Shown here piece by piece: positions 5,161-39,600 of a stretch of 54,486 nt of DNA; within the stretch, counting starts at the first letter, position 1; each line of letters begins with the position of its first letter. This DNA is from a virus. Lineage: Duplodnaviria > Caudoviricetes. The stretch lies in the IMG/VR virus record IMGVR_UViG_3300031957_002087, positions 1 through 54,486 of that record; one strand, given 5' to 3'. The position numbers were made by a program, and so were the translations under genes. The notes beneath the pieces were generated by a model. The model had not been told where the DNA came from. It worked only from the letters and a program-made list of their open reading frames with translations, and searched no databases.

Positions 5161-6462
5161 ATGCGCCTGAATATCGCAACTGCCCAGCCCAAGATCTACA
5201 CCGCCGAAGGTGGCCCGGCCAAGCGTATCTCGCCCGAGGCCGCGCTTCGCCGCTCCGTGCTGTCCTGCCTCCTATGGGAGAAGGAGTTCTACGAGGACGG
5301 CAAGGACATCGTTGCCCGCATTTCCGAGAACGCCGCGCAGGTCTCCAAGGAGACGGTCGCCGCGCTCGCGGTCGAGGCGCGCACCGTGCATGGCCTTCGC
5401 CACGCTCCCCTGATCCTGCTGCTCGACCTGATCCGCCGTGGCGGGCCGGGAGTGGCCGATGCCGTCGACGGCACGATCCGCCGCGCCGACGAGCTCGGCG
5501 AACTGGTCGCGCTCTACTGGCGTGATGGCCGCAAGATGCTGCCGCGCCAGATGAAGGCGGGACTGGCCAAGGCGTTCGGCCGCTTCAACGAGTATGCCCT
5601 TGCCAAGTATGACCGCGACGGGCCGGTGAAGCTGCGTGACGTGCTGTTCATGGCGCATCCGAAGCCGAAGGACGAGGACCAGGCCGCGCTGTTCAAGCGC
5701 ATCGCCGAGCGCCAGCTTGCCACCCCCGACACTTGGGAGGTGGCTCTGTCGGCCGGCGCCAGCAAGAAGGAGTCGTTCGAGCGGCTGATCCGTGACGGGA
5801 AGCTCGGCTATCTCGCCCTGCTGCGCAACCTGCGCAACATGGTCGAGGCTGACTGCGACCGCGATCTGATCGCGCAGGCCATCGTTGCCCGCAAGGGTGC
5901 TGATCTGGTCTGGCCTTTCCGCTACGTGGCGGCGGCGCGCGCGGTTCCGCAGTTGGAGCCGTTCATCGACCAGGCGCTTTGCGAGGCCGTAGCCTCCGGG
6001 CCCCGCCTGCAGGGTGTGACGGCCATCCTTGTAGACGTCTCCAGCTCGATGAACTCGCCCCTGTCGGCAAGGTCGGACATGACCCGCATGGACGCGGCTG
6101 CTGCCCTGGCATCGGTCGTGAACGGCGATGTCCGCGTGTTCACGTTCTCGCATCAGGTTGTCGAGGTTCCGCCTCGCCGTGGCATGTCAGGCGTCGACGC
6201 GGTGATCCGCTCGCAGCCGCACGGCTGGACGTATCTCGGCGCCGCCGTCGATGCGGTCAACCGTCAGGTCAAGCATGACCGCCTGATCGTCATCTCCGAT
6301 GAGCAGACGGCGGATCGCGTTCCTGATCCGGTTGCCCGACACGCCTACATGATCAACGTCGCTTCCAACAAGAACGGCGTCGGCTACGGAAGGTGGACCC
6401 ACATCGACGGCTTCTCCGAGGCTGTGATCCGGTTCATCGCGGAATCCGAGAATGACAGGTGA
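5161..6462 (+). CDS. rsr: Ro60/Rsr TROVE-domain RNA-binding protein with vWA domain
   Basis: LLWEKEFYEDG, FNEYALAKY, LRDVLFMAHPKP, TPDTWEVALS, LGYLALLRNLRN, MIDAS DVSSSM, GFSEAVIRFI; AGGAG RBS. Confidence 0.95.
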   Translation: MRLNIATAQPKIYTAEGGPAKRISPEAALRRSVLSCLLWEKEFYEDGKDIVARISENAAQVSKETVAALAVEARTVHGLRHAPLILLLDLIRRGGPGVADAVDGTIRRADELGELVALYWRDGRKMLPRQMKAGLAKAFGRFNEYALAKYDRDGPVKLRDVLFMAHPKPKDEDQAALFKRIAERQLATPDTWEVALSAGASKKESFERLIRDGKLGYLALLRNLRNMVEADCDRDLIAQAIVARKGADLVWPFRYVAAARAVPQLEPFIDQALCEAVASGPRLQGVTAILVDVSSSMNSPLSARSDMTRMDAAAALASVVNGDVRVFTFSHQVVEVPPRRGMSGVDAVIRSQPHGWTYLGAAVDAVNRQVKHDRLIVISDEQTADRVPDPVARHAYMINVASNKNGVGYGRWTHIDGFSEAVIRFIAESENDR

Positions 6463-6895: not shown

Positions 6896-7167
6896 GCCAC
6901 CCCCATTCCCGCTCCCCTAGTCTCCGCGGCTGCTGACGGCCAGCCGGGCACACCAAGTTCCGATGCCGGCGAGGGCAAAAATGGATCGGCCACCTCTCCG
7001 ATCCAGAGCGGGCCGCGAAAGCGGGGTCCATTGACGCTTAATCGGGACAAGCCGCAATTTCACAACCCATGAGTTGAACCCGCCGACATTCATGCTGGCG
7101 AAATGCCCTCTCACACGGGGGTTTTACCCACCAGCGGTTGAAATCGGCCCAAAAACCGAGACAAACG

Positions 7168-7272
7168 ATGTCAAAATTCGTGTGCTACACCAGTTGGTGC
7201 CGTTCAGGCCGCCGCTGCTGCCTCTGCGCGAACCGTAAGCGTATGGCCGGCGCCGCGCGCCGCGTCATCTGA
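7168..7272 (+). CDS. 34-aa Cys/Arg-rich small ORF coupled to terS
   Basis: MSKFVCYTSWCRSGRRCCLCANRKRMAGAARRVI; TGATG overlap with the terS start. Confidence 0.4.
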   Translation: MSKFVCYTSWCRSGRRCCLCANRKRMAGAARRVI

Positions 7273-7826
7273 TGCCAGTCCTTCCAAACCCCAAGCATGA
7301 GGCGTTCGCTCAGGGCCTCGCAAAGGGCCGGACGCAAGCCGAAGCCTATGCGGACGCCGGGTTCAAGCCCAATGACGGCCACGCCGCGCGGCTGGCAGGA
7401 AATGGTATGGTCTCGGCACGGGTCCGCGAGTTGCAGGAAAAGACCGCCGCCATGGCCGAGATCGACATCATGTCGACGCTGCGGGAGATGGTGAGGATCG
7501 GTCACTCCGACCTGCGTAGGGCCTTCGACAAGGACGGCCGGGTGAAGCCGCCGAAGGACTGGGACGACGACTTCGCGGCCGCCGTATCGTCTGTCGAGGC
7601 CACGACCACGGTGAAGGATGACAAGGCCGAGACGGTCTACAAGATCAAGCTGTGGGACAAGAACAGCGCGATCGAGAAGATCGCCAAGCACCTGGGCATG
7701 TTCATTGAGCGGTCCGAGGTGACGGTGACGCATGTCTACCATGAGATGAGCGACGACGAGCTCGACCGCGAATTGCAGAACCAGTTCCTGACCGACAAGA
7801 GCAACGCGGTCCAGACGTCGCACTGA
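7272..7826 (+). CDS. terS: Terminase small subunit
   Basis: LPNPKHEAFAQGLAKG..Q.EAY..AG HTH, KIKLWDKNSAIEKIAKHLGMF; directly upstream of TerL. Confidence 0.9.
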   Translation: MPVLPNPKHEAFAQGLAKGRTQAEAYADAGFKPNDGHAARLAGNGMVSARVRELQEKTAAMAEIDIMSTLREMVRIGHSDLRRAFDKDGRVKPPKDWDDDFAAAVSSVEATTTVKDDKAETVYKIKLWDKNSAIEKIAKHLGMFIERSEVTVTHVYHEMSDDELDRELQNQFLTDKSNAVQTSH

Positions 7827-9691
7827 TGCTCCACTACACGCTTGACGACCTGCGGGCCCTGCCCCGGGAGCGCAAGGAGATCGTCGCACAGATCCTCGCC
7901 GAGAAGGAGCGGCGCCGGGCGCAGCGGATGTTCTTCCGCCTGTTCCCCGACGAAGACACGCGCCAGCCCGACGGTTCGATCATCTATGCCCGGGAGAAAT
8001 ACCCGAAGCACCTCGAGTTCTTCAACGCGAGCGCGAAATACCGCGAGACCTGCTTTCTGGCTGCCAACCGTGTCGGAAAGGCGCTTCGCAACGGCACGCC
8101 GGTCGCAACGCCTGGCGGGTGGGCGTCGATAGAGACGCTGAAGGTCGGCGATGCGGTTGTAGCCGGCGACGGGACCATCACGACCGTGACGGGAGTCTAC
8201 CCCCAGGGCGTCAAGCCGCTCTATCGGCTGACGTTCGATGTGGGCGAAACGATCGACTGCTGCGGGGAGCATCTGTGGAAGTATCAGCATCCGCGGTCGC
8301 GCTATGCATATCGCCGCAGCCACGGTGTGACGGAGGCTAACCCATTCCACGGCGAATGGCGGGTTGCGGACACTGAAACGATCCTGAAGGAAGTCGGATC
8401 GAACCCCATCCCAAGAATGCGAGTGGTCATGCCGACGTCACGGCCTTGGCAGTTGGCAAAGCGACAAGTGCCGGTCGACCCGTATCTGCTTGGCGCTCTG
8501 CTTGGAGACGGAACGCTTAGGGGGGGGGTCAGTTTTGCCACGGTTGACCAAGAGATGGTTGAGACGGTTCGGGGAGCGTTGCCGGCAGGCCTTGCGATTA
8601 AGCACTCCGGCGGTTGTGACTACGGCCTCTGCAAGTCCGAAGGTCGAGTCCGTAACTCCAGGGGCCAGTTCTTTAGCGACCATTCGCTAATCAACGACCT
8701 TCGGCATCTGGGCGCCTTCGGTACACTGGCCTCCGAGAAACACGTGCCTCGGGACTATCTTCTGAACGATGTGCCAACCCGCCTTGGGGTCCTTCAGGGC
8801 CTGATGGATACCGATGGCAGCATCACCAAGACCGGTGCCATGGAGTTTTCTTCGGTATCCACCAGGCTTATCGAGGATGTCAAATTCCTCGTTCACTCCC
8901 TGGGTGGCAAGGCCACGGTCGAAGCCAGGCAGACATACTACACCCACAATGGTGAGCGCAGGGCAGGGCAGCCAAGCTACCGCCTGCACATCCGGCTTAA
9001 CATCTGCCCCTTCCGGCTCACGCGGAAGGCAGAGCGCTGGAACCCGAGACGCAACACGGCAGATCGGGTGCTCCACCGCATCGAGGACGCATCCTCCGGC
9101 GAAGCGACATGCATTTCCGTCGCACATCCCGATCGAACGTTCGTCACGGACCACGGAATCGTCACCCACAACACCTGGGCCGGCGCCTATTCGATGACCT
9201 GCCACCTGACCGGGCTTTATCCTGACTGGTGGACGGGAAGGCGGTTCGATCAGCCGATCAGGGCCTGGGCGGCCGGCAAGACCAACGAGACGACGCGCGA
9301 CATCGTGCAGGCGTCTCTGCTGGGGGAAATATCGTTCGAGGGTCCGCGCAAGATCGTCTCGGGCACTGGAATGGTGCCGGGCCATCTGCTCGGTCAGCCG
9401 ACATGGAAGAAGGGCGTCCCCGATCTCGCCGACACGATCAAGGTCCGGCATGTCTCGGGCAAATGGTCCCGCCTCGGGCTGAAGTCCTACGAGCAGGGTC
9501 GCGGATCGTTCGAAGGCACCGCGCAGCATGTGATCTGGGTCGACGAGGAATGCCCGCTCGACGTCTACGGCGAGTGCCTTATACGCACCGCGACCACCAA
9601 CGGGATCATCGTGCTGACGTTCACGCCGCTCGCCGGTCTCAGTGAGACGGTCATGCAGTTCATGCCGACCGAAGACCGCCCCGGAATCTGA
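7826..9691 (+). CDS. terL: Terminase large subunit, ATPase half (P22 gp2-like), intein-containing
   Basis: AANRVGK|T Walker A, HLTGLYPDWW.G.RF, KSYEQGR..FEG, Walker B IWVDEECP, coupling motif TFTP. Stops shortly after TFTP. Confidence 0.92.
   Translation: MLHYTLDDLRALPRERKEIVAQILAEKERRRAQRMFFRLFPDEDTRQPDGSIIYAREKYPKHLEFFNASAKYRETCFLAANRVGKALRNGTPVATPGGWASIETLKVGDAVVAGDGTITTVTGVYPQGVKPLYRLTFDVGETIDCCGEHLWKYQHPRSRYAYRRSHGVTEANPFHGEWRVADTETILKEVGSNPIPRMRVVMPTSRPWQLAKRQVPVDPYLLGALLGDGTLRGGVSFATVDQEMVETVRGALPAGLAIKHSGGCDYGLCKSEGRVRNSRGQFFSDHSLINDLRHLGAFGTLASEKHVPRDYLLNDVPTRLGVLQGLMDTDGSITKTGAMEFSSVSTRLIEDVKFLVHSLGGKATVEARQTYYTHNGERRAGQPSYRLHIRLNICPFRLTRKAERWNPRRNTADRVLHRIEDASSGEATCISVAHPDRTFVTDHGIVTHNTWAGAYSMTCHLTGLYPDWWTGRRFDQPIRAWAAGKTNETTRDIVQASLLGEISFEGPRKIVSGTGMVPGHLLGQPTWKKGVPDLADTIKVRHVSGKWSRLGLKSYEQGRGSFEGTAQHVIWVDEECPLDVYGECLIRTATTNGIIVLTFTPLAGLSETVMQFMPTEDRPGI
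8081..9172 (+). mobile_element. Class 3 intein with LAGLIDADG endonuclease (364 aa) in the TerL Walker A
   Basis: Ala1 (ALRNGTPV); block B EHLW; block F ATCISV; block G VTHN|T; LAGLIDADG motifs LLGALLGDG and LQGLMDTDGS. Confidence 0.9.
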
Positions 9692-9703
9692 GCGAGGCCA
9701 CGG

Positions 9704-9937
9704 ATGAGCGATCAGCGGGTCAGGGTGACCGGGATATCCGGCATTGTCGCGATGGTCGTGCATGAGGGCCGGCTGATCGTCGCCACCGACGACGGGCTCT
9801 ACCAGGTCATCGGCAGCCAGATGCACCGCATGGAATTGCTCGCCGAGCCGGTCGTGGTCGAGTCCGAGCGGTTCGCCGTTGCCGAGACAAGGCGCCGGGT
9901 TCCGCCCGATCCCCTGCTACCCGAAAGGAAAGCCTGA
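9704..9937 (+). CDS. Hypothetical protein
   Basis: GAGG RBS; TGATG coupling to the next gene. Confidence 0.6.
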   Translation: MSDQRVRVTGISGIVAMVVHEGRLIVATDDGLYQVIGSQMHRMELLAEPVVVESERFAVAETRRRVPPDPLLPERKA

Positions 9938-10236
9938 TGGCAAATCTGTATGTCACACAGTATTCTGGAATTGTCGGGATGCCTGGGGCTGGGCCGCAGT
10001 GTCCGGTTGAGCCGGCGCTGGCGAACGAAGTTGTTTCATTCACCACGTCTGCGGCCTCTGCGGCATTCTCTGACGCTTGCGGTCTGGTCCGGGTCGTGGC
10101 GGACGCCGATTGCCACATTCTCGTCTCCAGCGCCCCAACGGCTACGACAAGCCACATGAAGCTGGTCGCAACCGAGCCATATTTCTTCCAGCCCCGTTCG
10201 TCCGGACTAAAAGTCGCAGCTGTGGCCGCGGCCTGA
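9937..10236 (+). CDS. Small beta-rich phage protein, possible fibre base/adaptor
   Basis: AAGGAA RBS, coupled at both ends; Ala/Ser/Thr/Val-rich. Confidence 0.65.
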   Translation: MANLYVTQYSGIVGMPGAGPQCPVEPALANEVVSFTTSAASAAFSDACGLVRVVADADCHILVSSAPTATTSHMKLVATEPYFFQPRSSGLKVAAVAAA

Positions 10237-12074
10237 TGAACAGGGGTTTTCTCGGCCTCTACAGCCCGCTCGTCGGCAAGTGGGGCTTATTCGGCGCGGC
10301 CACGGCTGCGGGGTCTTATCTCGGCAATGAACCCTCGGGCCTCGCCATCGACTTTACCGAAAACAGCGCACTGGTGCGGGGGCACACGACGAACTTCTCC
10401 GGTCAACCCGTTGACCTCCTGACCTACACCGCGCCTAGCCCCAAGATGACCTACGGGTCCGATGGGGTGCTGAGGTATGCGCGGCATAATCTGCTGACGT
10501 ATTCGGAGGACTTTGCCAACGCAGCGTGGGGGAGCTACAACAACAACACTATTACAACAAACCAGATAGCAAGCCCGACAGGCGCTATTACAGCCGACAA
10601 GATCACAGAAAATTCTGCTACTTCGACGCATCATACTGCGCAAACAGCTGCAATTTTTGCAGTTGGCGCGAGAACTGTATGCTCAGTATACGCCAAGGCT
10701 GGAGAACGAAATTGGCTGTATTTCACTGGGTTTAATGACAGTAATCTTGGGGCATGGTTTAATCTATCGACAGGCTCTGTAGGCACTCGTCAATCGCTCA
10801 ACATTGCGGCATCAATAGAGGATGCTGGTGATGGCTGGTACAGGTGTTCTATCACGTTCGCACCGACGAAGGCTAACCCTTACATTGGTCTGGCTATCGC
10901 ACAGTCTGACAATACGTCTAGCTACCTTGGGGATGGATCGTCTGGGTTGTATATCTGGGGGGCACAAGTTCAGTTAGCTCCGACCAATTCCACCACCTAC
11001 CTCCCGACGACTTCCGCAGCCCGCTACGACCTCCCCTACGACTATGATCCGGTGACGCTTGCGGCCAAGGGTGTGCTGATCGAGGAACAGCGGACGAACC
11101 TGAGAACCTATTCGCAGCAGTTCGATAATGTGGCATGGACAAAGTCCAACACGACCGCGACCGCCGATCAGGCAACTGCACCGGATGGCACGCTCACCGC
11201 CGATCTGCTGGCCGAAAACAGCGCAACATCCGAGCACTATCTCCAAGGGACGGTGTTATCGCTCACGGGCTCTTATGTTGCCTCCGTATACGCGAAGCTC
11301 AAACCGGGGAGCACCCGGTATCTTTACATCGGCGAGCGCAGCACGACAGGTACTCAAGTCATCTTTGATCTTGTTAACGGGACAGCGGCGAGCGGTGGAA
11401 CCATCAGGAATGTCGGGAATGGGTGGTATCGATGCAGCCTCAATGGAATCACGCTGACAGCACAGAACTACGGCTTCAGGATTGGCTTGGATGATGATGG
11501 CAGCGCGGCGAGCTACAACTATTCCGGCGACGGCACGTCAGGGGTCTATATCTGGGGCGCTCAACTCGAAGCCGGTTCCTACGCGACCAGCTACATCCCA
11601 ACGGTTGCCTCACAGGTGACTAGGGCGGCGGATGCGATCAGCCTTGCCGGCTCCATGTTCCCGTGGAGTCAGACGGCAGGAATGTTCGCCGTAGAGACAT
11701 CAAGCATCTCCGCTACTGCGGGCACCAATCACGGTGTCGATCTATTAATTAACTCCAGCAACAAAGTTTCTATACGCAACGGCATGATGCTGATGACCTC
11801 TAGTGGGGCCACGCAGTTCTCGCTTTCGCCCGCGGGGATAGGAGCGTCAACCTCCGTTCAAAAGCGGATAGTTACGTGGGCCGAGAATGACGCGGCAGCG
11901 ACGGTAGATGGGAACAACGTCGCCACAGACACCTCAGTTACCTTGTTCGCGGGGACGCCAGAGCTAAGGCTGTCGGTGGATAACACTGGTTTCTACCCCA
12001 ATGGCCACATCGCCAAATTGAAATACCTCCCCCGCCGCGTCACCAACGCAGAACTACAGGCGATGGCAGCATGA
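10236..12074 (+). CDS. Head-spike/fibre-like protein with duplicated CBM/lectin-like domain (612 aa)
   Basis: Two copies of NL..YS..F.N.AW...D...ENSATS.H...SVYAK...GWYRCS...GDG.SG.YIWGAQ; GVLIEEQRTNL and ATSYIPT...VTRAAD motifs. Confidence 0.65.
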   Translation: MNRGFLGLYSPLVGKWGLFGAATAAGSYLGNEPSGLAIDFTENSALVRGHTTNFSGQPVDLLTYTAPSPKMTYGSDGVLRYARHNLLTYSEDFANAAWGSYNNNTITTNQIASPTGAITADKITENSATSTHHTAQTAAIFAVGARTVCSVYAKAGERNWLYFTGFNDSNLGAWFNLSTGSVGTRQSLNIAASIEDAGDGWYRCSITFAPTKANPYIGLAIAQSDNTSSYLGDGSSGLYIWGAQVQLAPTNSTTYLPTTSAARYDLPYDYDPVTLAAKGVLIEEQRTNLRTYSQQFDNVAWTKSNTTATADQATAPDGTLTADLLAENSATSEHYLQGTVLSLTGSYVASVYAKLKPGSTRYLYIGERSTTGTQVIFDLVNGTAASGGTIRNVGNGWYRCSLNGITLTAQNYGFRIGLDDDGSAASYNYSGDGTSGVYIWGAQLEAGSYATSYIPTVASQVTRAADAISLAGSMFPWSQTAGMFAVETSSISATAGTNHGVDLLINSSNKVSIRNGMMLMTSSGATQFSLSPAGIGASTSVQKRIVTWAENDAAATVDGNNVATDTSVTLFAGTPELRLSVDNTGFYPNGHIAKLKYLPRRVTNAELQAMAA

Positions 12075-12514
12075 TCGAGTATCTGATCTGGTCCCCTGAC
12101 CGTGCAACGTTCATCGCCACGATGGAAGCATTGACCAACCCTGTAACCGGCACTCCGCTGGCTGAAATGGTGGAGGGAGTTCTGACCCCCTCTGCTGGCG
12201 TCATGATTGACGAGATAGGTACAGTCACCAAGACCCCCGCAGTCCTCAACGAAAACGGCGAGGAAGTCACCCCGGCAGTCATCGTAGACGGCCACCATGT
12301 CAACATGGGTGCCTATGGCGAGCTTGCCGCCTTGCTCACGTTTGAAATGCCAACCGAGGGTGACGTATTCGAGCGCACCCGCATCCTTGAACTTCTTGGG
12401 GCCATGGCCTCTCAAGTATCGAAAAAGGGTGAGCCCACTGGTCTTGTGGGCACCAGTGGTGTCAAACTCTACGACCCCTCCGCAGTCACCGTCAGAACGA
12501 GGGTTTGGGCTTAA
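12071..12514 (+). CDS. Hypothetical protein, likely partner/chaperone of the fibre protein
   Basis: ATGA overlap; GEEVTPAVIVDGHHVN motif, ends RVWA. Confidence 0.7.
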   Translation: MIEYLIWSPDRATFIATMEALTNPVTGTPLAEMVEGVLTPSAGVMIDEIGTVTKTPAVLNENGEEVTPAVIVDGHHVNMGAYGELAALLTFEMPTEGDVFERTRILELLGAMASQVSKKGEPTGLVGTSGVKLYDPSAVTVRTRVWA

Positions 12515-12526
12515 CCTAAGGCCGGA

Positions 12527-12772
12527 TCAGACGCCAATATAATCGACCTCGGCGCCTTGGTATTTCTCTTCCATCTTGGTGATCGCCAGTTCGAGTTCCT
12601 CGGCGTTCAGGTTTTCGATCTCGTCGAGGGGATCATCGCCGTCGTAACGGACGAGGACGTCATAGAAATCGGGCTCGGCCGGGCGCTCACGGCTGCTGAG
12701 ATCAACAGCCTCTACAATACGTGGAGGGTAGGTGTCAGCCTGGGGGAATAGTATTCTCCAGCACCGTTTCGG
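12527..12772 (-). pseudogene. Start-less acidic reading frame (gene remnant)
   Basis: Open frame ...RPAEPDFYDVLVRYDGDDPLDEIENLNAEELELAITKMEEKYQGAEVDYIGV* with coding-like codons but no standard start after the upstream TAA. Confidence 0.4.
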
Positions 12773-12946
12773 TTAAGCCGGACGGTTCTGGGGACTACAC
12801 CACACTCAAGGCGGCGGTGCCGCTGCTTAGGAGCGTTGCGACGAGTGTCTTCGAGCTTATCGCATGACGCGCCAGCCGAACTCCTGTCTGAATGTCCACC
12901 GTCCCGCATTTGAGCCGATCTGAACCAACCCTAACGGAGCCTGACA

Positions 12947-13012
12947 ATGGGAGAACGCCGCGTTTACCGTGCGATCTGCGACGTTTGCGGCTCGGGTCTC
13001 GCTGATGGGTGA
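12947..13012 (+). CDS. 21-aa CxxC leader ORF overlapping the start of TerL-C
   Basis: GGAG RBS; MGERRVYRAICDVCGSGLADG*; overlaps ATG 13005. Confidence 0.4.
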   Translation: MGERRVYRAICDVCGSGLADG

Positions 13013-13748
13013 GATAAGCTCGTCCAAATACGTTGTTAGGGCGGGCTGGCGGGATGTGCCGCACATCGACGAAAAGACACAGCGCGAACTCCTGGAGGCA
13101 ACTCCTCCTCACCTTCGTGAAGCACGATCCGAAGGCATCCCGTCGATGGGCGCCGGCGCCATCTACCCGGTGCCGCTATCGGAGATCGAGGTCCAGCCCT
13201 TCGCCATCCCGGCCTATTGGCCGAAGGCTTATGCGCTCGACGTCGGCTGGAACCGCACGGCCTGCATCTGGGGAGCCAAGGAGCCGTCGACCGGCGTGCT
13301 CTACCTCTACGCCGAACACTATCGCGGCGAGGCGGTGCCCGAGGTCCATGCCGCGGCGATCAAGGCGCGTGGTGAGTGGATCCGGGGAGCGATCGATCCG
13401 GCGGCGCGCGGGCGCCAGCAGAAGGACGGCGAGCAGCTTCTGGCGACCTATCAGGGGCAGGGGCTGAAGCTTGTTCCCGCCGCCAACGCGGTCGACGCCG
13501 GGCTCTACGCGGTGTGGAGTCTGCTTGAGATCGGGCGGCTGAAGATTTTCTCGACACTGCAGAACTTCAAGAACGAATACCGGGTCTACCGGCGCGACGA
13601 GAAGGGCAAGGTCGTCAAGGTGAACGATCACCTGATGGACGCCGGCCGCTACCTCGTCATGACCTGGGACAAGATCGCGACGATCCAGAGGCCGGCGAGC
13701 ACGATCCGTTCGGGCCCGGCCATCGCTGACGAAGTGGCAGGGTATTGA
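13005..13748 (+). CDS. terL: Terminase large subunit, lid + RNase H-like nuclease half
   Basis: KYVVRAGWRDVPHI...REARSEGIPSMGAGAIYP, ALDVGWN, IDPA, NDHLMDAGRY; coupled to portal. Confidence 0.9.
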   Translation: MGEISSSKYVVRAGWRDVPHIDEKTQRELLEATPPHLREARSEGIPSMGAGAIYPVPLSEIEVQPFAIPAYWPKAYALDVGWNRTACIWGAKEPSTGVLYLYAEHYRGEAVPEVHAAAIKARGEWIRGAIDPAARGRQQKDGEQLLATYQGQGLKLVPAANAVDAGLYAVWSLLEIGRLKIFSTLQNFKNEYRVYRRDEKGKVVKVNDHLMDAGRYLVMTWDKIATIQRPASTIRSGPAIADEVAGY

Positions 13749-16135
13749 TGGCTGAAAACTTCCCGACCGACATGCCCGACGCCAGCCAGCCCGGCAGGAG
13801 CGATCCGAAGGCGCTCGGCACCAAGCTCGAAGCCATCGTCGGACGGCTCGCGGCCATCGCCAACAAGCGCGTCGGCGAGCGCCAGTCGCTCGAGGAAGCG
13901 TGGATACTCGACGCCAGCCAGTACCATGGCCGCTACGACACCAAGACCGAACGCGCCTTGAGGGAGGCCGAGAAGTCGCAGCTCTACATCAACCTGACCC
14001 GGCCGAAGACGGACGCGATGTCGGCCCGGTTGATGGACCTGCTGTTCCCGACCGACGACAAGAACTGGGGCATCCAGCCGACACCGGTTCCCCGGCTCAC
14101 CAAGCAGGCGCAGGAGGCCGAGAAGGCTGCAAACGACCTCGCGGCCCGTCTTGCTGAAGCAACGGCCAAGGCGGGGCTGCCAGAGGGGCAGGAACCCGAT
14201 CCGCAACTGAAGGCGCTGCAGGACAAGGCCAACGAAGCCCGCACCAAGGCCGAGCAGTTGCAGATGGTCATTCAGGAAGGCCAGCGGCGCTGCGACCTGA
14301 TGGCGGCCGAGATCGACGACCAGTTGAAGGAGTCGAGCTACCACGCGGTCAAGCGCGACCAGATCGAGGATGCCTGCAAGTTCGGTACCGGCGTCACCAA
14401 GGGCCCGGTTACCGGCGACAAGATGCGCAAGGGCTGGCAGATCGAGAAGGTCCCGGTCACGAACCCGGATGGAACTCCGAAGATCGGGCCCGACGGCCAG
14501 CAGGAAACGCAGGACGGCGGCTACAAGCTGCAGATGACCAACGGCGATCGGCCGGCAATGCGCCATGTCGATCTCTGGTCCTTCTTCCCCGACATGAACG
14601 TCAAGAACATCCAGGACGGCGAGGGCAACTTCGAGCGCCACCTGATGAACGAGAAGAAGATGAAGGGGCTGGCCCGGCTGCCGGGCTTCGACAAGGAGAA
14701 GATCAAGAAGCTGCTCAGGCAGAAGCCGCGGCAGTCAGCACCCTCCTACATGGCCTCGCTGCGCAACATCACGGGCGACAAGCAGGAGATCACCGGAGAC
14801 CTCTACCATGTGTGGGAGTATTCCGGGCCCCTCAGCACCGACGACATGCGCGATCTTGCCCAGGCGGTCGGCGACGATGCGACATTCCAGGAGATGCAGG
14901 AAGTCGACCCGCTGGCCGAGATCAACGCCGTGGTCTGGTTCTGCGACAACGAACTGCTGAAATTCTCTATCTATCCCTACGACTCCGGCGAGTGCATGTA
15001 TTCGGTGTTCAACCTGGTCAAGGACGACAGTTCGGTCTTTGGCTACGGCATCCCGGCCGTCATCCGCGATCCGCAGAAGTCGCTCAATGCCTCATGGCGG
15101 GCGATGATGGACAATGCCGGACTGGCTTCGGGGCCGCAGATCGTCATCGCGACGGAACTGATCGAGCCCGCCGACGGCAACTGGACGATGGCGCCGCGCA
15201 AGATCTGGAAGGCGCTGGCCGGCCTGCCGAAGGAGCATCGCGCATTCGAGACCTTCGATGTGCCGATGCACCAGGTCGAGCTCGCCAATATCATTACGCT
15301 GTCGAAACAATTCATCGACGACATGAGCTCGATGCCGCAGATCGCGCAGGGCGAGCAGGGCGCGGGCACGACCAAGACGGCGCAGGGCATGGCGATCCTG
15401 ATGAACGCCACGAACGTGGTGTTCCGCCGCATCGTGAAGAACTTCGACGACGACGTGACGACGCCCGACATTCGCCGGCTCTACGACTGGAACATGCAGT
15501 TCAACGAGAAGGACGAGATCAAGGGCGACTACGACGTCGATGCCCGTGGCTCTTCGGTGCTGCTGGTTCGCGAGATGCAGGCGCAGACCCTGATGGCGAT
15601 TGCCACCAACCTGGGCGGTCATCCGGTCTATGGCCCGATGCTGAAGAACCGCGACATCCTGCGCAAACTGTTCCAGTCGCTGATGATCCCGTCGGCCGAC
15701 GTGGTCCTGACCGACAACGAGATCGACGCGGTGCTTGCCGCGGCTGCCAACGACAATGCGGTCGCCGAGGCGGAAAAGCGCAAGATGGAACTGGAGAACC
15801 GCAAGCTCGACATCGAGGAAGACCGCATCGGTGCAGAGGTTGCCCGGGCCAACATGGACAACAAGGCCAAGCGCGAGATCGAGATCATCAAGCGGGAGAC
15901 CGAACTGATCAAGCTCGCGGCCACCGGCAACATGAACCTCGACCAGTTGGAGGCGAGGCTGCAGATGCACCGGGAGAAGCTGGACTCCGACGAGCGCAGG
16001 ATGGCTGCCGAGATCGCGGTCGAGCGGCAGAATGCGGAAGAGGCCCGCCAGCGCGGCGAGCAGCCGACCGGCTCGGGCGGGTTCATCTCTGCCGGCGGCA
16101 AGAACGGCAAGACGATCGAAGGGACGCGGGCGTGA
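13748..16135 (+). CDS. Portal protein
   Basis: Follows TerL; INLTRPKT..., FGTGVTKGP, FGYGIP..IRDPQ..LN, long C-terminal coiled coil. Confidence 0.85.
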   Translation: MAENFPTDMPDASQPGRSDPKALGTKLEAIVGRLAAIANKRVGERQSLEEAWILDASQYHGRYDTKTERALREAEKSQLYINLTRPKTDAMSARLMDLLFPTDDKNWGIQPTPVPRLTKQAQEAEKAANDLAARLAEATAKAGLPEGQEPDPQLKALQDKANEARTKAEQLQMVIQEGQRRCDLMAAEIDDQLKESSYHAVKRDQIEDACKFGTGVTKGPVTGDKMRKGWQIEKVPVTNPDGTPKIGPDGQQETQDGGYKLQMTNGDRPAMRHVDLWSFFPDMNVKNIQDGEGNFERHLMNEKKMKGLARLPGFDKEKIKKLLRQKPRQSAPSYMASLRNITGDKQEITGDLYHVWEYSGPLSTDDMRDLAQAVGDDATFQEMQEVDPLAEINAVVWFCDNELLKFSIYPYDSGECMYSVFNLVKDDSSVFGYGIPAVIRDPQKSLNASWRAMMDNAGLASGPQIVIATELIEPADGNWTMAPRKIWKALAGLPKEHRAFETFDVPMHQVELANIITLSKQFIDDMSSMPQIAQGEQGAGTTKTAQGMAILMNATNVVFRRIVKNFDDDVTTPDIRRLYDWNMQFNEKDEIKGDYDVDARGSSVLLVREMQAQTLMAIATNLGGHPVYGPMLKNRDILRKLFQSLMIPSADVVLTDNEIDAVLAAAANDNAVAEAEKRKMELENRKLDIEEDRIGAEVARANMDNKAKREIEIIKRETELIKLAATGNMNLDQLEARLQMHREKLDSDERRMAAEIAVERQNAEEARQRGEQPTGSGGFISAGGKNGKTIEGTRA

Positions 16136-33643: not shown

Positions 33644-36600
33644 ATGGACAACCTCTTTGGCGACCTGATCCCTGCTGCCCCGGCGGGCGGCGGGCTTTTT
33701 GACGACCTCGTTCCGAAGGCCAAGGAGCGCGCCACGGCGGGCCAGGCGTTTGGTCGCGGCGTCGATCAGGCCCAGGGCATGCTCTATGGCGGTGTGGAAG
33801 CCATCGGCGAGGCCGTTGGTTCAGAGACCATCACCGACTTCGGCCGTGAAGGGCGCGAGCGCAATGCCGAGGAAGCCGCTGCCTATCCAGAGCAGCAGTC
33901 AGCATTCGGCATTCGCAGCGCAGGCGATGCCGGCCAGTGGGCGAAGGAGACCTTTGCCGGCCAGGCCCCGATGCTGGCCGCACCTCTTGCCGGTGCCGTG
34001 GCCGGTGGCGCGATCGGTTCGGTCGTCCCTGTCGTCGGCACGACCATCGGCGCGCTGATCGGCGCGGCCATCCCGTCGTTCCTCATGGGTTCAGGCGAAA
34101 TTCAGGGGGCGATCAAGGAAAAGGACCCGGATGCGTCCGCTCCCGGCTATGCGCTGGGCGGTGGTGCTGCGGTTGCTGCCCTCGATACCGTTCTCCCCGG
34201 CAAGATCGGCACGCGGCTTCTGAAGGCTGCTGGCCTCGATATTGCAGAGCAGGTCGCCAAGAAAGTGCTGCTGACCCGTGTCGGAACGGAGATCGGCAAG
34301 GGTGCAGCGACGGAAGGCGTGACGGAAGCCATCCAGTCGGTCATTACCGAGGCGACGGCAGCACAGGCTACCGGGCAGGAACTATCGCCCGACTGGTGGC
34401 AGCAGGCAATCGAGGAAGGTCTGGCCGGCGCATTGATCGGCGGATCGGTGCAGGGCGCGACCGGCATCCCGACGCCGAAGGAAAAGGCGCTTGGTGTAGA
34501 TGCCGAGACTGGCCTTCCCGAGGGTGCTGCCCCGGCAGACACTCTATTCGGCGCAGAGCCGGGCACAGAGGCGGCGCCAGCGCGCGAAACGCCGTCGCCC
34601 CTTGATCGTGTCGTCCCCGAGCTAAAAGACGCTCCACGGCCCGCCAATGAGCCGATGCCGGTGGCTCCCGATCTCGACCGGGCAGACAGCCCGCGCCTGA
34701 CCGAAGCGGATCGCGCCTCCCCCTTGCCAAACGACCTGATCGACGATGGCAAGAGGATCATGGCCGAGGCGACCGGAGAGCCTTCGGTCGACGATGGTTC
34801 GATGCTGCGGGCCGCGCAGGAAGCCTATCCGGCACAGGAGATGCCGACGGCTCCCGATCTGGACCGCCGCGCGCCGGCCGGTGCGGAACTCTCCATTGCG
34901 CCCGATCTGGATACCGGCGTCTTTGCCGACCTGGTTCCGGCTTCCAAGGGTGAATGGCAGCAGTTCGGCCCGGAGACCGGTACGCTCAACATTCCCCGTT
35001 CCGAAATGCCACAGATCAAGGCCGAGCATCGCGGCGCCATGGTCAACTTCCTCGAAGCCAAGGGCATCGGCCATCGCGAAGAGACTGTTGCAGCCGGTGA
35101 CCTGAAGCCGACGCAGGCCGAGTTTTCGCGGTCCAAAGTCAACAAGGCCAAGGGTTTCGAGGGTGGTGACCGCTCCATCCTGGTATCCAGCGACGGCCAT
35201 GTTCTCGACGGGCATCACCAGTGGCTTGCCGCGCGCGAAGCCGGAGAGCCGGTCAAGATCATGCGGCTCGATGCTCCCATTGCGGACCTCCTGCCGCTGG
35301 CGCATGAGTTCCCGAGCTCGAAACTGTCCGTCGGCAAGACCAAGCGCGACACCGCGCCCCGCGACATCGTGCAATTCCTCGCCGCACAGGGCGGCATCCG
35401 CGACCATCGCGGCGAACTGAAGTCCGCAGGGGCCGCCAAGCATTTCGTGCCGGGTGTTGGCCGTCTGGTCCGCGACATCGGCATGGATCTGGACAAGGCC
35501 CGAGAAGCAGCGGAAGAGGCCGGCTATCTCGGACAGGCGGGCGAGTACCAGACCTCGACCGTTGCCGACCTGCTCAATGCCATCGACAGCACCTTGCGGG
35601 GCGAGCGGGTCTATTCCCGTGCGGATGCCGGCAGGGCAGAGGATCGACGGGCCTTGAACCAGCTTCAGGGCGGCGACAGCCGGCAGGTGGCCGTTCGCGA
35701 AGAACTCGAGGCCATCCTGAAGGAAGTCGGCGGCCGGCTGCTGCCCGGCGAGATCGACGAGGCTATGATCCTGATCACGCAGGAAGGGGCATGGCCCGAG
35801 GAAGCAATTGCCGAGGTGATGGAGCGCGGCGCTCTTGCCTTTGAGGCGGAAACCCACGACAATGCAGGCCAAGGAGAAGCCCGTTATGACGTCCCGTTTG
35901 ACACCGGAGCAGAGGACCGCGCTGGCGCACAAGCTGCTTATCCGGTCGGCAACCGGGAAGGGCCTGAGCAAAGAGCAGAAGCAGGAAGCCCGTCGCCACG
36001 CCGGGAACCTGGAGGCGGCGAACAAGCTCGAGCAGCGGATGCAAAACCGCAAGAAGCTGAACTAGCTACCGAGCGCGGTGCCGAAGGCAAGCCGCAGGCC
36101 GTCATCCCCGGGGCAGAGCGCGCGTCTGACGCCACCATGGCGCAGCGCAAGGCTGATGCCCCTCTCAAGGCCAAGGTAGAGCAGAAGGACGTCGGCGGGC
36201 TGTTTGGGGACGACTCCAAGCAGACCGACCTGATGGACCTGCCGGGCGCGAGGGGCGAGCCGAAATTCTCCCGCCGCGCGATCACGGACACCGACGCCTT
36301 CAAGCGTTGGTTCGGATCGTCAAAGGTCGTCGACGAGAACGGCGAGCCGATGGTCGTGTACCATGGGACGCAAGAGAAGATCAAAGCATTCACTGGCAAG
36401 CGCGAAGTCTGGCTTGGCGGCTCGGATGACAATGTGGTGGATGCAGAGGTCGCCTTCTTCACAGATAACCGATCAACAGCCCGCTCTTACGGGAAGAACA
36501 CGACGCCATCATACCTCTCGCTCCAGAACCCGCTGATCGTCGATGCGGGCGGGGCCAACTACTCAGGGTTTGTGCCAGCCGCTTATATCGGAGAGGCGCT

Positions 36601-39600
36601 AGCGGGCGGCTATGACGGCGTCATCGTCGAGAACATGCGCGACGACGCGTCGTCAGGCGGTGAGCAGGCGACTGTCTACATCACCGCGAAGGCCACGCAG
36701 ATCAAGTCCGCCACCGGCAACCGTGGCACGTTCGATCCGGCTGACCCGAGGATCAATTTCGCACGCCGCCAAGGCGCTGCCATTGACGAGCAGATCGTCG
36801 GCGGCACGGTCCAGTACCGTCTAAGCCCGGAGTTCGTCGACAAGGCGGAAAGCGTTCGCAAGGCGCTGCGCCAGAAGCTCGACGCCATGGGCCTGCCGGG
36901 GATCGGTCTTCGCGTCTGGGAATCGATGCGCGCCGCCATGGACGGGCAGACCTTCATCGTCGACGGCCAGTATCTGCGCGGGATGATCGACGTGGCGTTC
37001 GACTATTCCGACCCGGAGTCCACGGTCGACCACGAAGCGATCCACGCCATGAGCGCGCTCGGACTGTTCTCGGACAATGAATGGGCGATCCTGTCGCGCA
37101 AGTCCAAGAAGGAATGGATCGGCAAATACGACATCGCCCGGAATTATGGCATGTTCCCCGAGGACGTGCAGATCGAGGAAGGCATCGCTCACGCCTATGC
37201 CGACTGGGCCACAGGTGGCCGGATGGATGGCGTCATTGCCGCCTCTTTCAAGAAGATCAAGGCGCTGCTGAAGGGACTTTACCAGGCGCTCACCGGGGCC
37301 GGGTTCTCGACGGTCGAGGACATCTTTGCCGAGGTGGCATCGGGCAAGATAGGTAACCGCACGGTAGACTCGCAGGGGCGCGGCAAGCCGAAGTTCTCGT
37401 CGCGGCCAGAGACCGAAGTGGTCGATACCGTCGACGGTCCGCGCGAGCAGTTGGTCATCCCCGGCGCCGAACGCATCCGCGACAAGGACCTCGCCGAGCG
37501 CAAGATGGAAGGCCGCAAGGGTTCTGACAAGGCGCAGAAGTCCGTCGGCGACCTGCCGCTGTTCTCCGACGAGAAGGACCAGTTGTCGCTGTTCCAGTCC
37601 GTCTGGCACGGTACGCCACATGAGTTCGACAAGTTCATGCTGGACAAGATCGGCACGGGCGAGGGCAATCAGTCGTTCGGCTGGGGACTGTACTTCGCAT
37701 CGAAGAAGGAGATCGCGGAGCATTATCGCAAGACACTCTCCAACTCCAGTGTGGTCTATCCAGACGGCACACAGCAGAAGGTCGAGACCGTCGGCGAGAT
37801 AGATGCACTCGTCGAGAAGTTCCCGGCAGAGGCCGAGCGCCTTGGCCTAGACAGCGGCATCGAGAACCGCGACGTGCGCAAGCTCATGTTTTCGAGCACC
37901 ATTGCTGATGTCGCCACGTCAGGCTTTGTCGAGACCGATTGGAGCGAGGGCGCGGACATCATCGAGGCTGCTCGCCGCTATCTTGAAAAGAAGCGCCACG
38001 AAGCCCCCGATCACCTTGAGGCCACCTATGTTCCCCGCGCCACGGCGATCGAAGTTGGCAAGGTCTACCAGCGGGCGATTGACCTCATTGACAAGATGAA
38101 GGACGCGGGCCTGAGTTCGGTCAAGGGCAAGCTCTACCAGGCCGACATCCCCAACGACAGCGAACTACTGGTCTGGGATAAGGAACTCGCTGACCACCCT
38201 GCGGACATGCAAGAAAAGGTTGTCGAGGCGTTCCAGAGCTTTATCCCTGGCTTCCGCCCTGATCGCGAACGGTCCGTCATGTCAATTATCACAGACCTGA
38301 CACTAGCGGCCGGCCAAGCTGGCTTTTCCGGGGATAGCGCAAGGCGGGCCGCCTCAGAAGCCCTGCGCGCGGCCGGCATCCCAGGCCACAGGTATCTGGA
38401 CAACACGTCCCGCGCGGCTGGTGACGGCTCCTACAACTACGTCATCTACGACGAGAACGCGATCAGGATCGAAGCCCGCTTCAAGATCACGTCACAGTCG
38501 GTCGCCAAGGTTCGCAAGGCTGCGTCTGGCGCGCTCGGTCGCCGCATCATGTCGGCCATCAAGCGCGGCAAGCCTGACCCGGAGACGGTCGGTGAATACT
38601 CGCACCGCAAGATGATCGACTATCTGCACCCGCTGCGCGTGATGACGGAGAGCGTCGGCGCCAACCTGCACGATGCGATGAACGCCTATCTGCAGGCACG
38701 CCTCGCAGACGACGCCACGGTATCCCGCATCCAGCAGATGCACGACACATTCGTCACGCCCATGGTGGATGCGCTGGCGCGGTCAGGCGCCTCGCTGGAA
38801 GACCTGCACGACTATCTCTATGCCCGCCATGCCCCGGAGCGGAATCGCGTCGTCGGGCTGCGCAATGAGCCTGGCAGCGATCTCCACAACGCGGTGACTG
38901 ATCATGACGTGAAGGGCGCTTCCGGCTGGTCGACGAACGAGGCCAAGAAGGTCCTTGCCCGTCTGCGCACAGATCCAGAGAAGTTTGCCGGCATTCAGGA
39001 AGCTGCTCGGCATATGCGGGCCATGCTCGACGCCAACCTTTTGGAGCAGAAGCAGGCCGGGCTCATCTCCGACGAAAGCTATGATCTGCTCACGAAGCAG
39101 TGGCTGAACTACGTGCCCCTTCGCAGCAACGATGCCGTAGACGACAATGGCGATTTCTCGCCCGGCCGTGGACGCGGGTTCGATGTCCGAGGCGACGAGT
39201 TCCAGGCTGCCACGGGACGTTTCTCTGAAGCCGAGAATATCCCCGCATGGGGCATCACCCTTGGCGAGCGGACGCACTTGCGGTCCGAGCACAACAACGT
39301 CGGCAAGGCAGTCCTGCGCTTCCTCTCGCGATACGATCCAAAGGGCGAGAAGATCGCCCGCGTCTATTGGTCCGGCGAGGTGCCGTTCGGGAACATCGAG
39401 AAAGCGCCGGAAGTAAAGCGCCGGGTCATCAATGCCGAGGGCGTGGCAGTCGACAAGGTTGTGCCGCCGTCGACGATCTCGCCCACCATGTTCGCCGTCA
39501 AGGATGGCGGGCGCGTCTACTATGTGGAGTTTGCCGACGAGAAAGTCGGGGCCGCGCTCAAGAACATGGGCGTCATGCACCTTGACGTCGTGTCGAGGCT

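Follow-up and report, generated by a model that had tools for sequence, protein, structure and literature searches.

We describe the terminase locus of a marine phage whose large terminase subunit (TerL) is encoded by two separate genes. The window, i.e., the whole stretch of DNA that was analysed, is the entire linear IMG/VR virus record IMGVR_UViG_3300031957_002087 of 54,486 bp, for which CheckV estimates a completeness of 60%. Its late region contains genes for the small terminase subunit (TerS), TerL, the portal protein and the major head protein as well as tail and lysis genes, as assigned by Pfam and PHROG. The two TerL genes, an ATPase piece at 7826-9691 and a piece carrying the lid and the nuclease at 13005-13748, are separated by 3,313 nucleotides (nt) that hold four co-directional open reading frames (ORFs) at 9704-9937, 9937-10236, 10239-12074 and 12071-12514. 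This arrangement was proposed in a preliminary description made from the sequence alone, and it is borne out by the ORFs and by the matches of the two pieces to Terminase_6N and Terminase_6C, respectively. The record contains only one copy of each TerL half. We refer to the halves as the N piece and the C piece; the N piece is itself divided by an intein into two exteins. The terminase genes and their immediate neighbours are the following:

7272-7826, plus strand: TerS, small terminase subunit (Pfam Terminase_2, 1.5e-15; phrog_51, 1.4e-21); its stop codon overlaps the start of the N piece
7826-8080, plus strand: N-extein of the N piece, residues 1-85, ending in the first part of the Walker A motif (AANRVGK)
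8081-9172, plus strand: intein of 364 residues with a LAGLIDADG homing endonuclease (Pfam Hint_2 and LAGLIDADG_3)
9173-9691, plus strand: C-extein of the N piece, residues 450-621 (Terminase_6N, 5.7e-10; phrog_31467, 1.4e-80)
13005-13748, plus strand: C piece, lid and RNase H-like nuclease, 247 amino acids (aa) (Terminase_6C, 8.5e-09; phrog_5653)
13745-16135, plus strand: portal protein (phrog_332, 4.5e-44; phrog_1216, 2e-13; weak Pfam SU10_portal); its start overlaps the stop codon of the C piece

Position of the break and conservation of the two pieces

The N-piece ORF encodes 621 aa and ends in ...TFTPLAGLSETVMQFMPTEDRPGI*, with the stop codon at 9689-9691; homologous codons resume at 13005. 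In the C-extein, the Walker B motif (DE) and the TFTP coupling motif are followed by a short tail, and the stop codon comes 9 residues past the conserved FMP that itself follows TFTP. On the other side of the gap the reading frame of the C piece is open over 12945-13748, and the head of the piece begins 6 residues before the conserved SKY. The restart of TerL at 13005, as given in the preliminary description, is supported by comparison with related loci: L003 and L004 have an ATG and L007 has a GTG at the same position, with the conserved SSSKY/SSRY next, and in the window as well as in L003, L004, L005, L007 and L012 the start codon stands 6-7 codons before the conserved S-K/R-Y.

The integrity of the two pieces was assessed on those alignment columns that at least 90% of 28 relatives conserve. 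The window retains 39 of 39 such columns in the N piece and 46 of 47 in the C piece, the exception being a change from Leu to Ile. Conserved residues of the N-extein include P41, R56, Y59, H62, N81, G84 and K85. The ATPase motifs match conserved columns on both sides of the intein that interrupts Walker A (N81, G84 and K85 before it; T450, D573, E574, T598, T600 and P601 after it), and invariant columns of the nuclease correspond to the aspartates D79, D131, D208 and D212 in the C piece. The earlier statement that both halves keep their catalytic motifs is consequently correct, except that the intein in Walker A had been overlooked. The two pieces are homologous to the Terminase_6 family, in which the ATPase and the nuclease reside on one polypeptide; the architecture found here is a two-gene one.

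The ratio of nonsynonymous to synonymous substitution rates (dN/dS) was obtained from pairs of relatives that share the split, the window itself having no close relative:

L003/L004: N piece 0.04; C piece, dS saturated
L066/L069: N piece 0.10; C piece 0.14
L005/L006: N piece 0.05; C piece 0.05
L007/L010: N piece 0.00; C piece 0.03

Four pairs of split prophages gave dN/dS of 0.10-0.42, and a fifth pair was saturated. These comparisons indicate that both TerL pieces are under purifying selection in the split lineages.

Distribution of the split among related phages

A search of viral contigs with the C piece yielded 80 loci with identities of at most 63%, five of which were without one of the halves. 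Among the 75 loci compared, TerL is split into different ORFs at the same linker in 21 and forms one ORF in 54, and the split is present in each of the 10 loci whose C piece has the highest identity to that of the window. The single C-piece query found no close relatives in bacterial genomes, where an alignment query was needed; the search with alignment A3 gave 213 bacterial-genome loci, from which the best 80 were taken, ranked by their likeness to a split relative and hence enriched for such loci. Within these best 80 of 213, both halves are present in 78; the break at the same linker occurs in 43 of these and a single ORF in 35, and the locus closest to the window is L120 (77% identity in the N part and 69% in the C piece). 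The prophage hosts include cultured strains of Fulvimarina, Aureimonas, Aminobacter, Metarhizobium, Azospirillum, Novosphingobium and Sphingopyxis; strains of Aminobacter, Metarhizobium, Aureimonas and Azospirillum are the sources of L117, L118, L116 and L124. The break point that the preliminary description suggested mapping in relatives is thus shared by viral contigs and prophages alike. The cultured-phage records that were cross-checked, namely EBPR podovirus 1, two Manatee Spring contigs, Vibrio phage IME271 and Chlorobiaceae phage CV-1-33, contain TerL as one ORF.

Stand-alone pieces also came up when 1.84 billion cluster representatives (50% identity) were searched exhaustively with HMMER and the best 150 were taken. 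In this set, 86 representatives are full-length, 38 have their first residue no more than 16 residues from the junction, and only 12 start 60-200 residues upstream of it, the pattern expected of random truncation. Most of the junction-starting representatives (31 of 38) do not exceed 300 aa, and the other 7 carry Intein_splicing or LAGLIDADG_3 matches further on. Wherever the stand-alone pieces are named at all, the name is "hypothetical protein".

The recurrence of the break bears on two explanations that would deprive the split of biological meaning. The first is that the metagenome assembler wrongly placed foreign DNA inside TerL; the window is indeed a metagenomic contig, and its GC content drops to 0.49-0.59 within 10400-12800. 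On the other hand, two Logan per-run contigs of 5.1 kb and 46 kb (X1 and X2) span 9300-13400 with 0 differences, although the two runs may be the source sample, and the contigs X3 and X4, which come from two other runs in the same study, extend across the 5' junction, the 3' junction lying outside them. The position of the break coincides exactly with that in 21 viral and 43 prophage relatives, four prophages of sequenced bacteria also have the 99-aa gene of the gap in this slot, and the identical 99-aa protein is recorded from 4 contigs. With this evidence an assembly artefact is very improbable.

The second explanation is that the element is defective or decaying, TerL having been broken by an insertion and disused, or that the record holds a non-functional copy. 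The incompleteness and linearity of the record would agree with this, as would the GC content of the intervening genes (0.576), which lies below that of the flanks (0.632) as in a recent insertion, and two of the split prophage loci look further disrupted. What speaks for a functional TerL is the retention of conserved catalytic and structural positions in both pieces, the retention by the intein of its terminal residues and both LAGLIDADG motifs, dN/dS clearly below 1 for both pieces in eight split pairs, the presence of the split across many divergent lineages, the full set of head and tail genes on the contig and the occurrence of the sequence at a depth of 8-27 in two runs. Decay of the locus is therefore improbable in our judgement.

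Genes in the gap

The region between the two pieces contains the following features:

9704-9937, plus strand: cargo ORF 1, 77 aa; no Pfam or PHROG match; its stop codon overlaps the start of ORF 2
9937-10236, plus strand: cargo ORF 2, 99 aa, "family A", small all-beta phage protein (AlphaFold predicted local distance difference test, pLDDT, 95; all strands)
10239-12074, plus strand: cargo ORF 3, 611 aa, tail-fibre-like (phrog_5939 "tail protein", 2e-89)
12071-12514, plus strand: cargo ORF 4, 147 aa; weak phrog_18574 match at 5e-4 only
12515-13004, no strand assigned: spacer of about 490 nt before the C piece, without a convincing gene by ORF inspection

The preliminary description called these genes a structural cassette. 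This fits the 611-aa ORF, whose tblastn matches are annotated tail-fibre or minor-tail genes of RcapMu, RcWaterboi, P106B and others; the other three ORFs match no named family in Pfam, PHROG, tblastn or Atlas. ORF 3 is composed of two diverged tandem repeats of about 200 aa (about 600 nt) each, with direct repeats spaced 597 nt at 10929-11564, and in 29 loci that encode relatives of the 611-aa protein, neither TerL pieces nor the other cargo ORFs are found next to it. ORF 1 has no homologue in the fetched loci. ORF 4 has no phage tblastn match, and its Atlas neighbours are viral hypothetical proteins with scores under 0.9.

Homologues of the 99-aa family A protein are encoded between the TerL pieces of four prophages (L117, L118, L120 and L121). 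In L118 the family A gene occupies the entire gap and its stop codon overlaps the C-piece start; in L138 a member of the family is located elsewhere than in this slot. The predicted fold has no PDB match at E <= 0.001 (the best VIA Z, 5.0, is inside the background), and BFVD and sequence matches are to uncharacterised viral or phage proteins only. A gene of about 184 aa behind the 99-102-aa family is common to L117, L120 and L121, and next in line in L120 and L121 is a gene of 138-141 aa. Since these second and third slot genes are shared, the slot appears to have a conserved proximal and a variable distal part.

Pfam and PHROG reveal no homing endonuclease in the cargo of the window; HNH genes are present in the slot of L050, L121 and L154. 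Tail-fibre PHROG matches occur in the slot of the window, L120, L121 and L159. The lower GC content of the cargo is also observed in L066 and L069 but not in every prophage.

Within the spacer there is a doubtful 64-aa ORF on the plus strand (12557-12751). It overlies an 81-codon open frame on the minus strand (12527-12772), which has a protein-like acidic sequence and no ATG, GTG or TTG start yielding at least 40 aa, and the plus-strand ORF may be the shadow of this frame. At 12947-13012 on the plus strand there is a 21-codon upstream ORF with GGAG ahead of it, whose stop codon overlaps the ATG at 13005. From its position, this short ORF may couple translation of the C piece, the N piece being 3.3 kb distant.

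Variation of the gap and origin of the split

The distance between the two pieces varies widely. Among the related viral contigs it ranges from overlapping ORFs, presumably coupled in translation, to 2.7 kb (3,313 nt in the window itself), and among the 43 split prophages from -34 to +6,121 nt, with 17 gaps within 34 nt, 14 of 75-724 nt and 12 of at least 1 kb. In L005 a GTG start and in L012 an ATG start overlaps the stop codon of the N piece, and in L058 the two ORFs are 4 nt apart. Because relatives have the split without any cargo, the split predates the cargo, which contradicts the view, implied in the preliminary description, of a singular event caused by the 3.3-kb insert.

The contents of the gap are exchanged even between close relatives. 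L066 and L069 are 87-91% identical at the nucleotide level in both TerL pieces, yet their cargoes of 2.46 kb and 2.70 kb have no detectable similarity; homology ends at the N-piece stop codon and restarts 27 nt ahead of the open frame of the C piece. Comparison of the cargoes of the window, L050, L056, L066 and L069 likewise detected no similarity. The sequence comparisons thus show the gap between the pieces as a variable cargo slot, a site at which fibre-like and other genes are recurrently exchanged among otherwise close phages.

The number of times the split arose depends on how the tree is read. A free tree requires 9 changes, of which well-supported branches force only 1, and a single split clade is not rejected (approximately unbiased test, p = 0.265). 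As for the mechanism of origin, an indel in the linker or the insertion of a homing endonuclease would both fit.

The intein in Walker A

The intein, the sole window-specific insertion in the alignment with the 28 relatives, comprises residues 86-449 of the N piece and is placed between the K and T of Walker A. Because it interrupts this motif, the N piece must undergo protein splicing before it can bind a nucleotide. Pfam detects Hint_2 (below its cut-off) and LAGLIDADG_3, with the Hint match at residues 87-123. The first residue of the intein is Ala and the last two are HN, followed by Thr, and both LAGLIDADG motifs are present. We take class 3 inteins to be defined by the lack of an N-terminal Cys, Ser or Thr, by Trp in block B, Cys in block F and Thr in block G, and by a C-terminal HN followed by a +1 nucleophile. 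The sequence (Ala1, ...GEHLW..., ...ATCISV..., ...VTHN, then Thr) fits these presumed blocks, and the intein looks like a class 3 intein on that basis.

An insert resembling a mini-intein is found at the same Walker A site in L069 (1256-1699; 148 residues, Cys at the start, HN at the end and Thr next) and is missing from its close relative L066. Intein or LAGLIDADG insertions near the C-terminal nuclease motif are found in the stand-alone lid and nuclease pieces P0001, P0005, P0007, P0009, P0013, P0059, P0080 and P0103. Judging by these sequences, some phages have both a split TerL and an intein in its lid and nuclease piece.

Class 3 LAGLIDADG inteins are already known in TerL of actinobacteriophages, where they likewise occupy a nucleotide-binding site (10.1101/2025.01.02.630785). 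The phage described here differs from these in being of proteobacterial type and marine, and in that its TerL is also split into two genes.

Structural model of the two-chain complex

The solved nuclease domain of P22 (4DKW) aligns to a relative solely from the LGSGAIYP motif onward, and the C piece consequently has about 47 residues that belong upstream of the nuclease. The preliminary description suggested predicting the structure of the heterodimer, and we modelled it with alignments A2 and A3 on the two pieces of L003, which is intein-free and is the nearest viral-contig relative of the window on the tree. The predicted complex is a confident one, with an interaction prediction score from aligned errors (ipSAE) of 0.86 compared to 0.01 for the best of 3 controls; the mark used for this score is reached by 58 of 80 solved complexes and by 2 of 110 mismatched pairs. 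The runs agree in at least 85% of the contacts, and the pLDDT of the partners is at least 81.

In the model, the interface is formed by residues 1-49 of the C piece against residues 47-80 and 233-250 of the N piece. Residues 7-14 of the C piece are predicted to run parallel, in rising register, along residues 67-75 of the N piece, the strand that leads to the P-loop. The C piece would accordingly provide the next parallel strand of the additional-strand catalytic glutamate (ASCE) fold together with the lid, which would place the cut inside the ATPase domain and suggests that the two chains should be obligate partners. By this prediction the break is inside the ATPase fold, after the TFTP motif.

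Possible rejoining of the pieces and comparison with known split genes

A third explanation is that the two pieces are rejoined by an unrecognised self-splicing intron, by trans-splicing, by ribosomal frameshifting or bypassing, or by excision of the cargo from the DNA during the lytic cycle. There are precedents for the first of these: group I introns with confirmed splicing divide TerL in Jug phages (PMC12880540), the Twort terminase is given in three coding sequences (PMC13729910), and phD2B and K1E are interpreted as containing an intron with a homing endonuclease (PMC4246154). These systems resemble the present one in that TerL is annotated as more than one ORF (two or three), and a homing endonuclease gene may lie between the ORFs; the HNH genes in the slot of L050, L121 and L154 point in the same direction. 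They differ in that their ORFs are rejoined by RNA splicing, whereas the window has no detectable ribozyme, some relatives have overlapping ORFs and the insert consists of ordinary phage genes.

Several results stand against rejoining. Rfam has no match in the window at the gathering score and none in 9400-13300 at E <= 1, and in 13 split loci it found one tRNA only, a negative result that does not extend to a novel class of ribozymes; ARAGORN and Rfam together indicate no intron, Y RNA or tRNA in the window. There is no room for a ribozyme or intron in relatives whose ORFs overlap or lie 4-110 nt apart. Start codons are conserved at the head of the C piece, and the cargo consists of intact co-directional genes, one of which is conserved in the slot. 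No direct or inverted repeats were found at the cargo boundaries in the window, and the per-run assemblies of four runs contain no contig that joins the TerL pieces directly. The preliminary description had listed boundary repeats, split-intein fragments and an intron core as missing, and the repeat search, Pfam and Rfam agree; its alternative of an RNA- or DNA-level rejoining finds no support in Rfam or in the DNA contigs. We consider rejoining improbable.

In "fractured genes", including a gp17-type terminase locus, a split intein is combined with a free-standing homing endonuclease (Dassa et al. 2009, PMC2677866). The likeness lies in an essential phage gene in two pieces around foreign gene(s), and in the HNH genes in the slot of the three relatives. 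The difference is that fractured genes have split-intein halves and are trans-spliced, whereas the only intein of the window is contiguous and located in Walker A; the Pfam Hint match falls within it, and no split-intein halves were found at the junction. Fewer than about 10 residues follow the last conserved motif of the N piece, and fewer than about 10 precede the first one of the C piece, which is far too few for split-intein halves since published halves have 88-105 and 33-54 residues (PMC2677866).

The single-chain TerL of P22 and Sf6 type has the same ATPase motifs, RNase H-like nuclease and gene order (TerS, TerL, portal), and in the relatives EBPR podovirus 1 and Chlorobiaceae phage CV-1-33 the same protein is a single ORF. 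In comparison, the chain in the window is broken after TFTP inside the ATPase fold, as modelled, and its cistrons are 3.3 kb apart. Other phage enzymes also offer a parallel to two independent chains. Aeh1 nrdA, split by mobE, and the T4 topoisomerase genes 39 and 60 are reportedly cases of intron-less fission in which independently translated chains reassemble non-covalently, and a free-standing homing endonuclease is the suspected cause of gene fission in T4-like phages. The present case concerns a different enzyme, the split is old and widespread, and the gap is a multi-kilobase variable slot as opposed to a single endonuclease gene. In herpesviruses, the terminase gene UL15, also encoding an ATPase and nuclease, consists of two exons with genes between them, joined by spliceosomal splicing of one mRNA; bacteria do not have such machinery, and the analogy is one of layout only. 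A split TerL is known where it is rejoined by a group I intron, a split intein or the spliceosome, and non-covalent fission is known, reportedly, in other phage enzymes. The literature yielded cases with an intron, an intein or a split intein only; we found no account of a two-chain TerL that has neither intron nor intein, nor of a cargo slot in the gap of such a TerL, a provisional statement as supplements and most subscription journals were not covered.

Interpretation

The reading that we favour, with a probability of roughly 0.78, is that of a heritable two-chain TerL held together non-covalently, with the gap between its genes serving as a cargo slot. The three-component terminase (TerS, ATPase, lid and nuclease) envisaged in the preliminary description is favoured by the shared split, the overlapping ORFs of relatives, the purifying selection and the predicted heterodimer. 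From these we infer that the two pieces are translated independently, form a heterodimer and function in packaging.

The following course of events would be consistent with this reading. A late transcript would run from TerS to the portal gene and include both TerL pieces with the cargo between them, the cargo being in the same direction and probably co-transcribed; in 7000-14000 we found no terminator-like site on the plus strand and one weak promoter-like site, no more than in shuffled sequences. The N precursor would supply the ASCE ATPase core through TFTP, and excision of the LAGLIDADG intein by protein splicing would restore Walker A. The C piece would be translated from the ATG at 13005, perhaps aided by the 21-codon upstream ORF, and would contribute the lid, the RNase H-like nuclease and the beta-strand that comes next in the ATPase sheet. 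Strand complementation beside the P-loop strand would then reunite the two chains non-covalently, and the reassembled TerL would form the packaging motor with TerS and the portal. The split itself is inherited and older than the cargo, and the gap tolerates insertions and has become a variable slot.

Several points weigh against this reading. As the record is 60% complete, a second TerL may exist outside the window in the whole genome. The ATG at 13005 has a weak Shine-Dalgarno sequence and stands behind a stretch of about 490 nt that seems to contain no gene. The prophage loci L148 and L164 look broken, so that some of the split copies are in decay. The good score of the modelled complex may reflect memory of single-chain TerL structures, and the model shows likeness, not binding. 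A ribosomal frameshift could in principle fuse the frames in relatives with adjacent or overlapping ORFs, although no conserved slippery site was seen there (without a formal test) and the frame offsets vary between lineages. No RNA run is listed as containing this stretch.

A further proposal is that the split is adaptive: separate chains might let the phage set the ratio or timing of the two activities or alter the sensing of TerL by the host, the seam might have been recruited as a protected landing pad for exchangeable host-range cassettes made up of fibre-like proteins and the 99-aa family, and this family might perhaps be a fourth, terminase- or head-associated component. We regard this proposal as speculative and rather unlikely. 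If it were true, a viral DNA motor would pass its force through a beta-sheet seam with no covalent bond across it.

In models of viral DNA packaging, TerL is a single chain whose ATPase communicates with the nuclease/translocating domain via covalent linkers. A widespread and apparently functional natural cut provides a ready system to ask what the covalent link contributes. The split also makes it possible to label or mutate one half at a time, and prophages of this kind are present in several cultured hosts. Gene callers, TerL-based phylogenies and completeness tools will mis-score phages with a split TerL.

Other features of the window

Two further genes lie outside the terminase locus. At 5161-6462 on the plus strand there is a gene for a 433-aa protein with TROVE (1.7e-12) and von Willebrand factor A (vWA) domains, i.e., a phage-encoded Ro60-like protein; ARAGORN and Rfam detect no tRNA or Y RNA beside it, though the 200 nt upstream look non-coding. 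The second is a single ORF that encodes 2,541 aa; it extends over 33644-41269 on the plus strand, late in the structural region.

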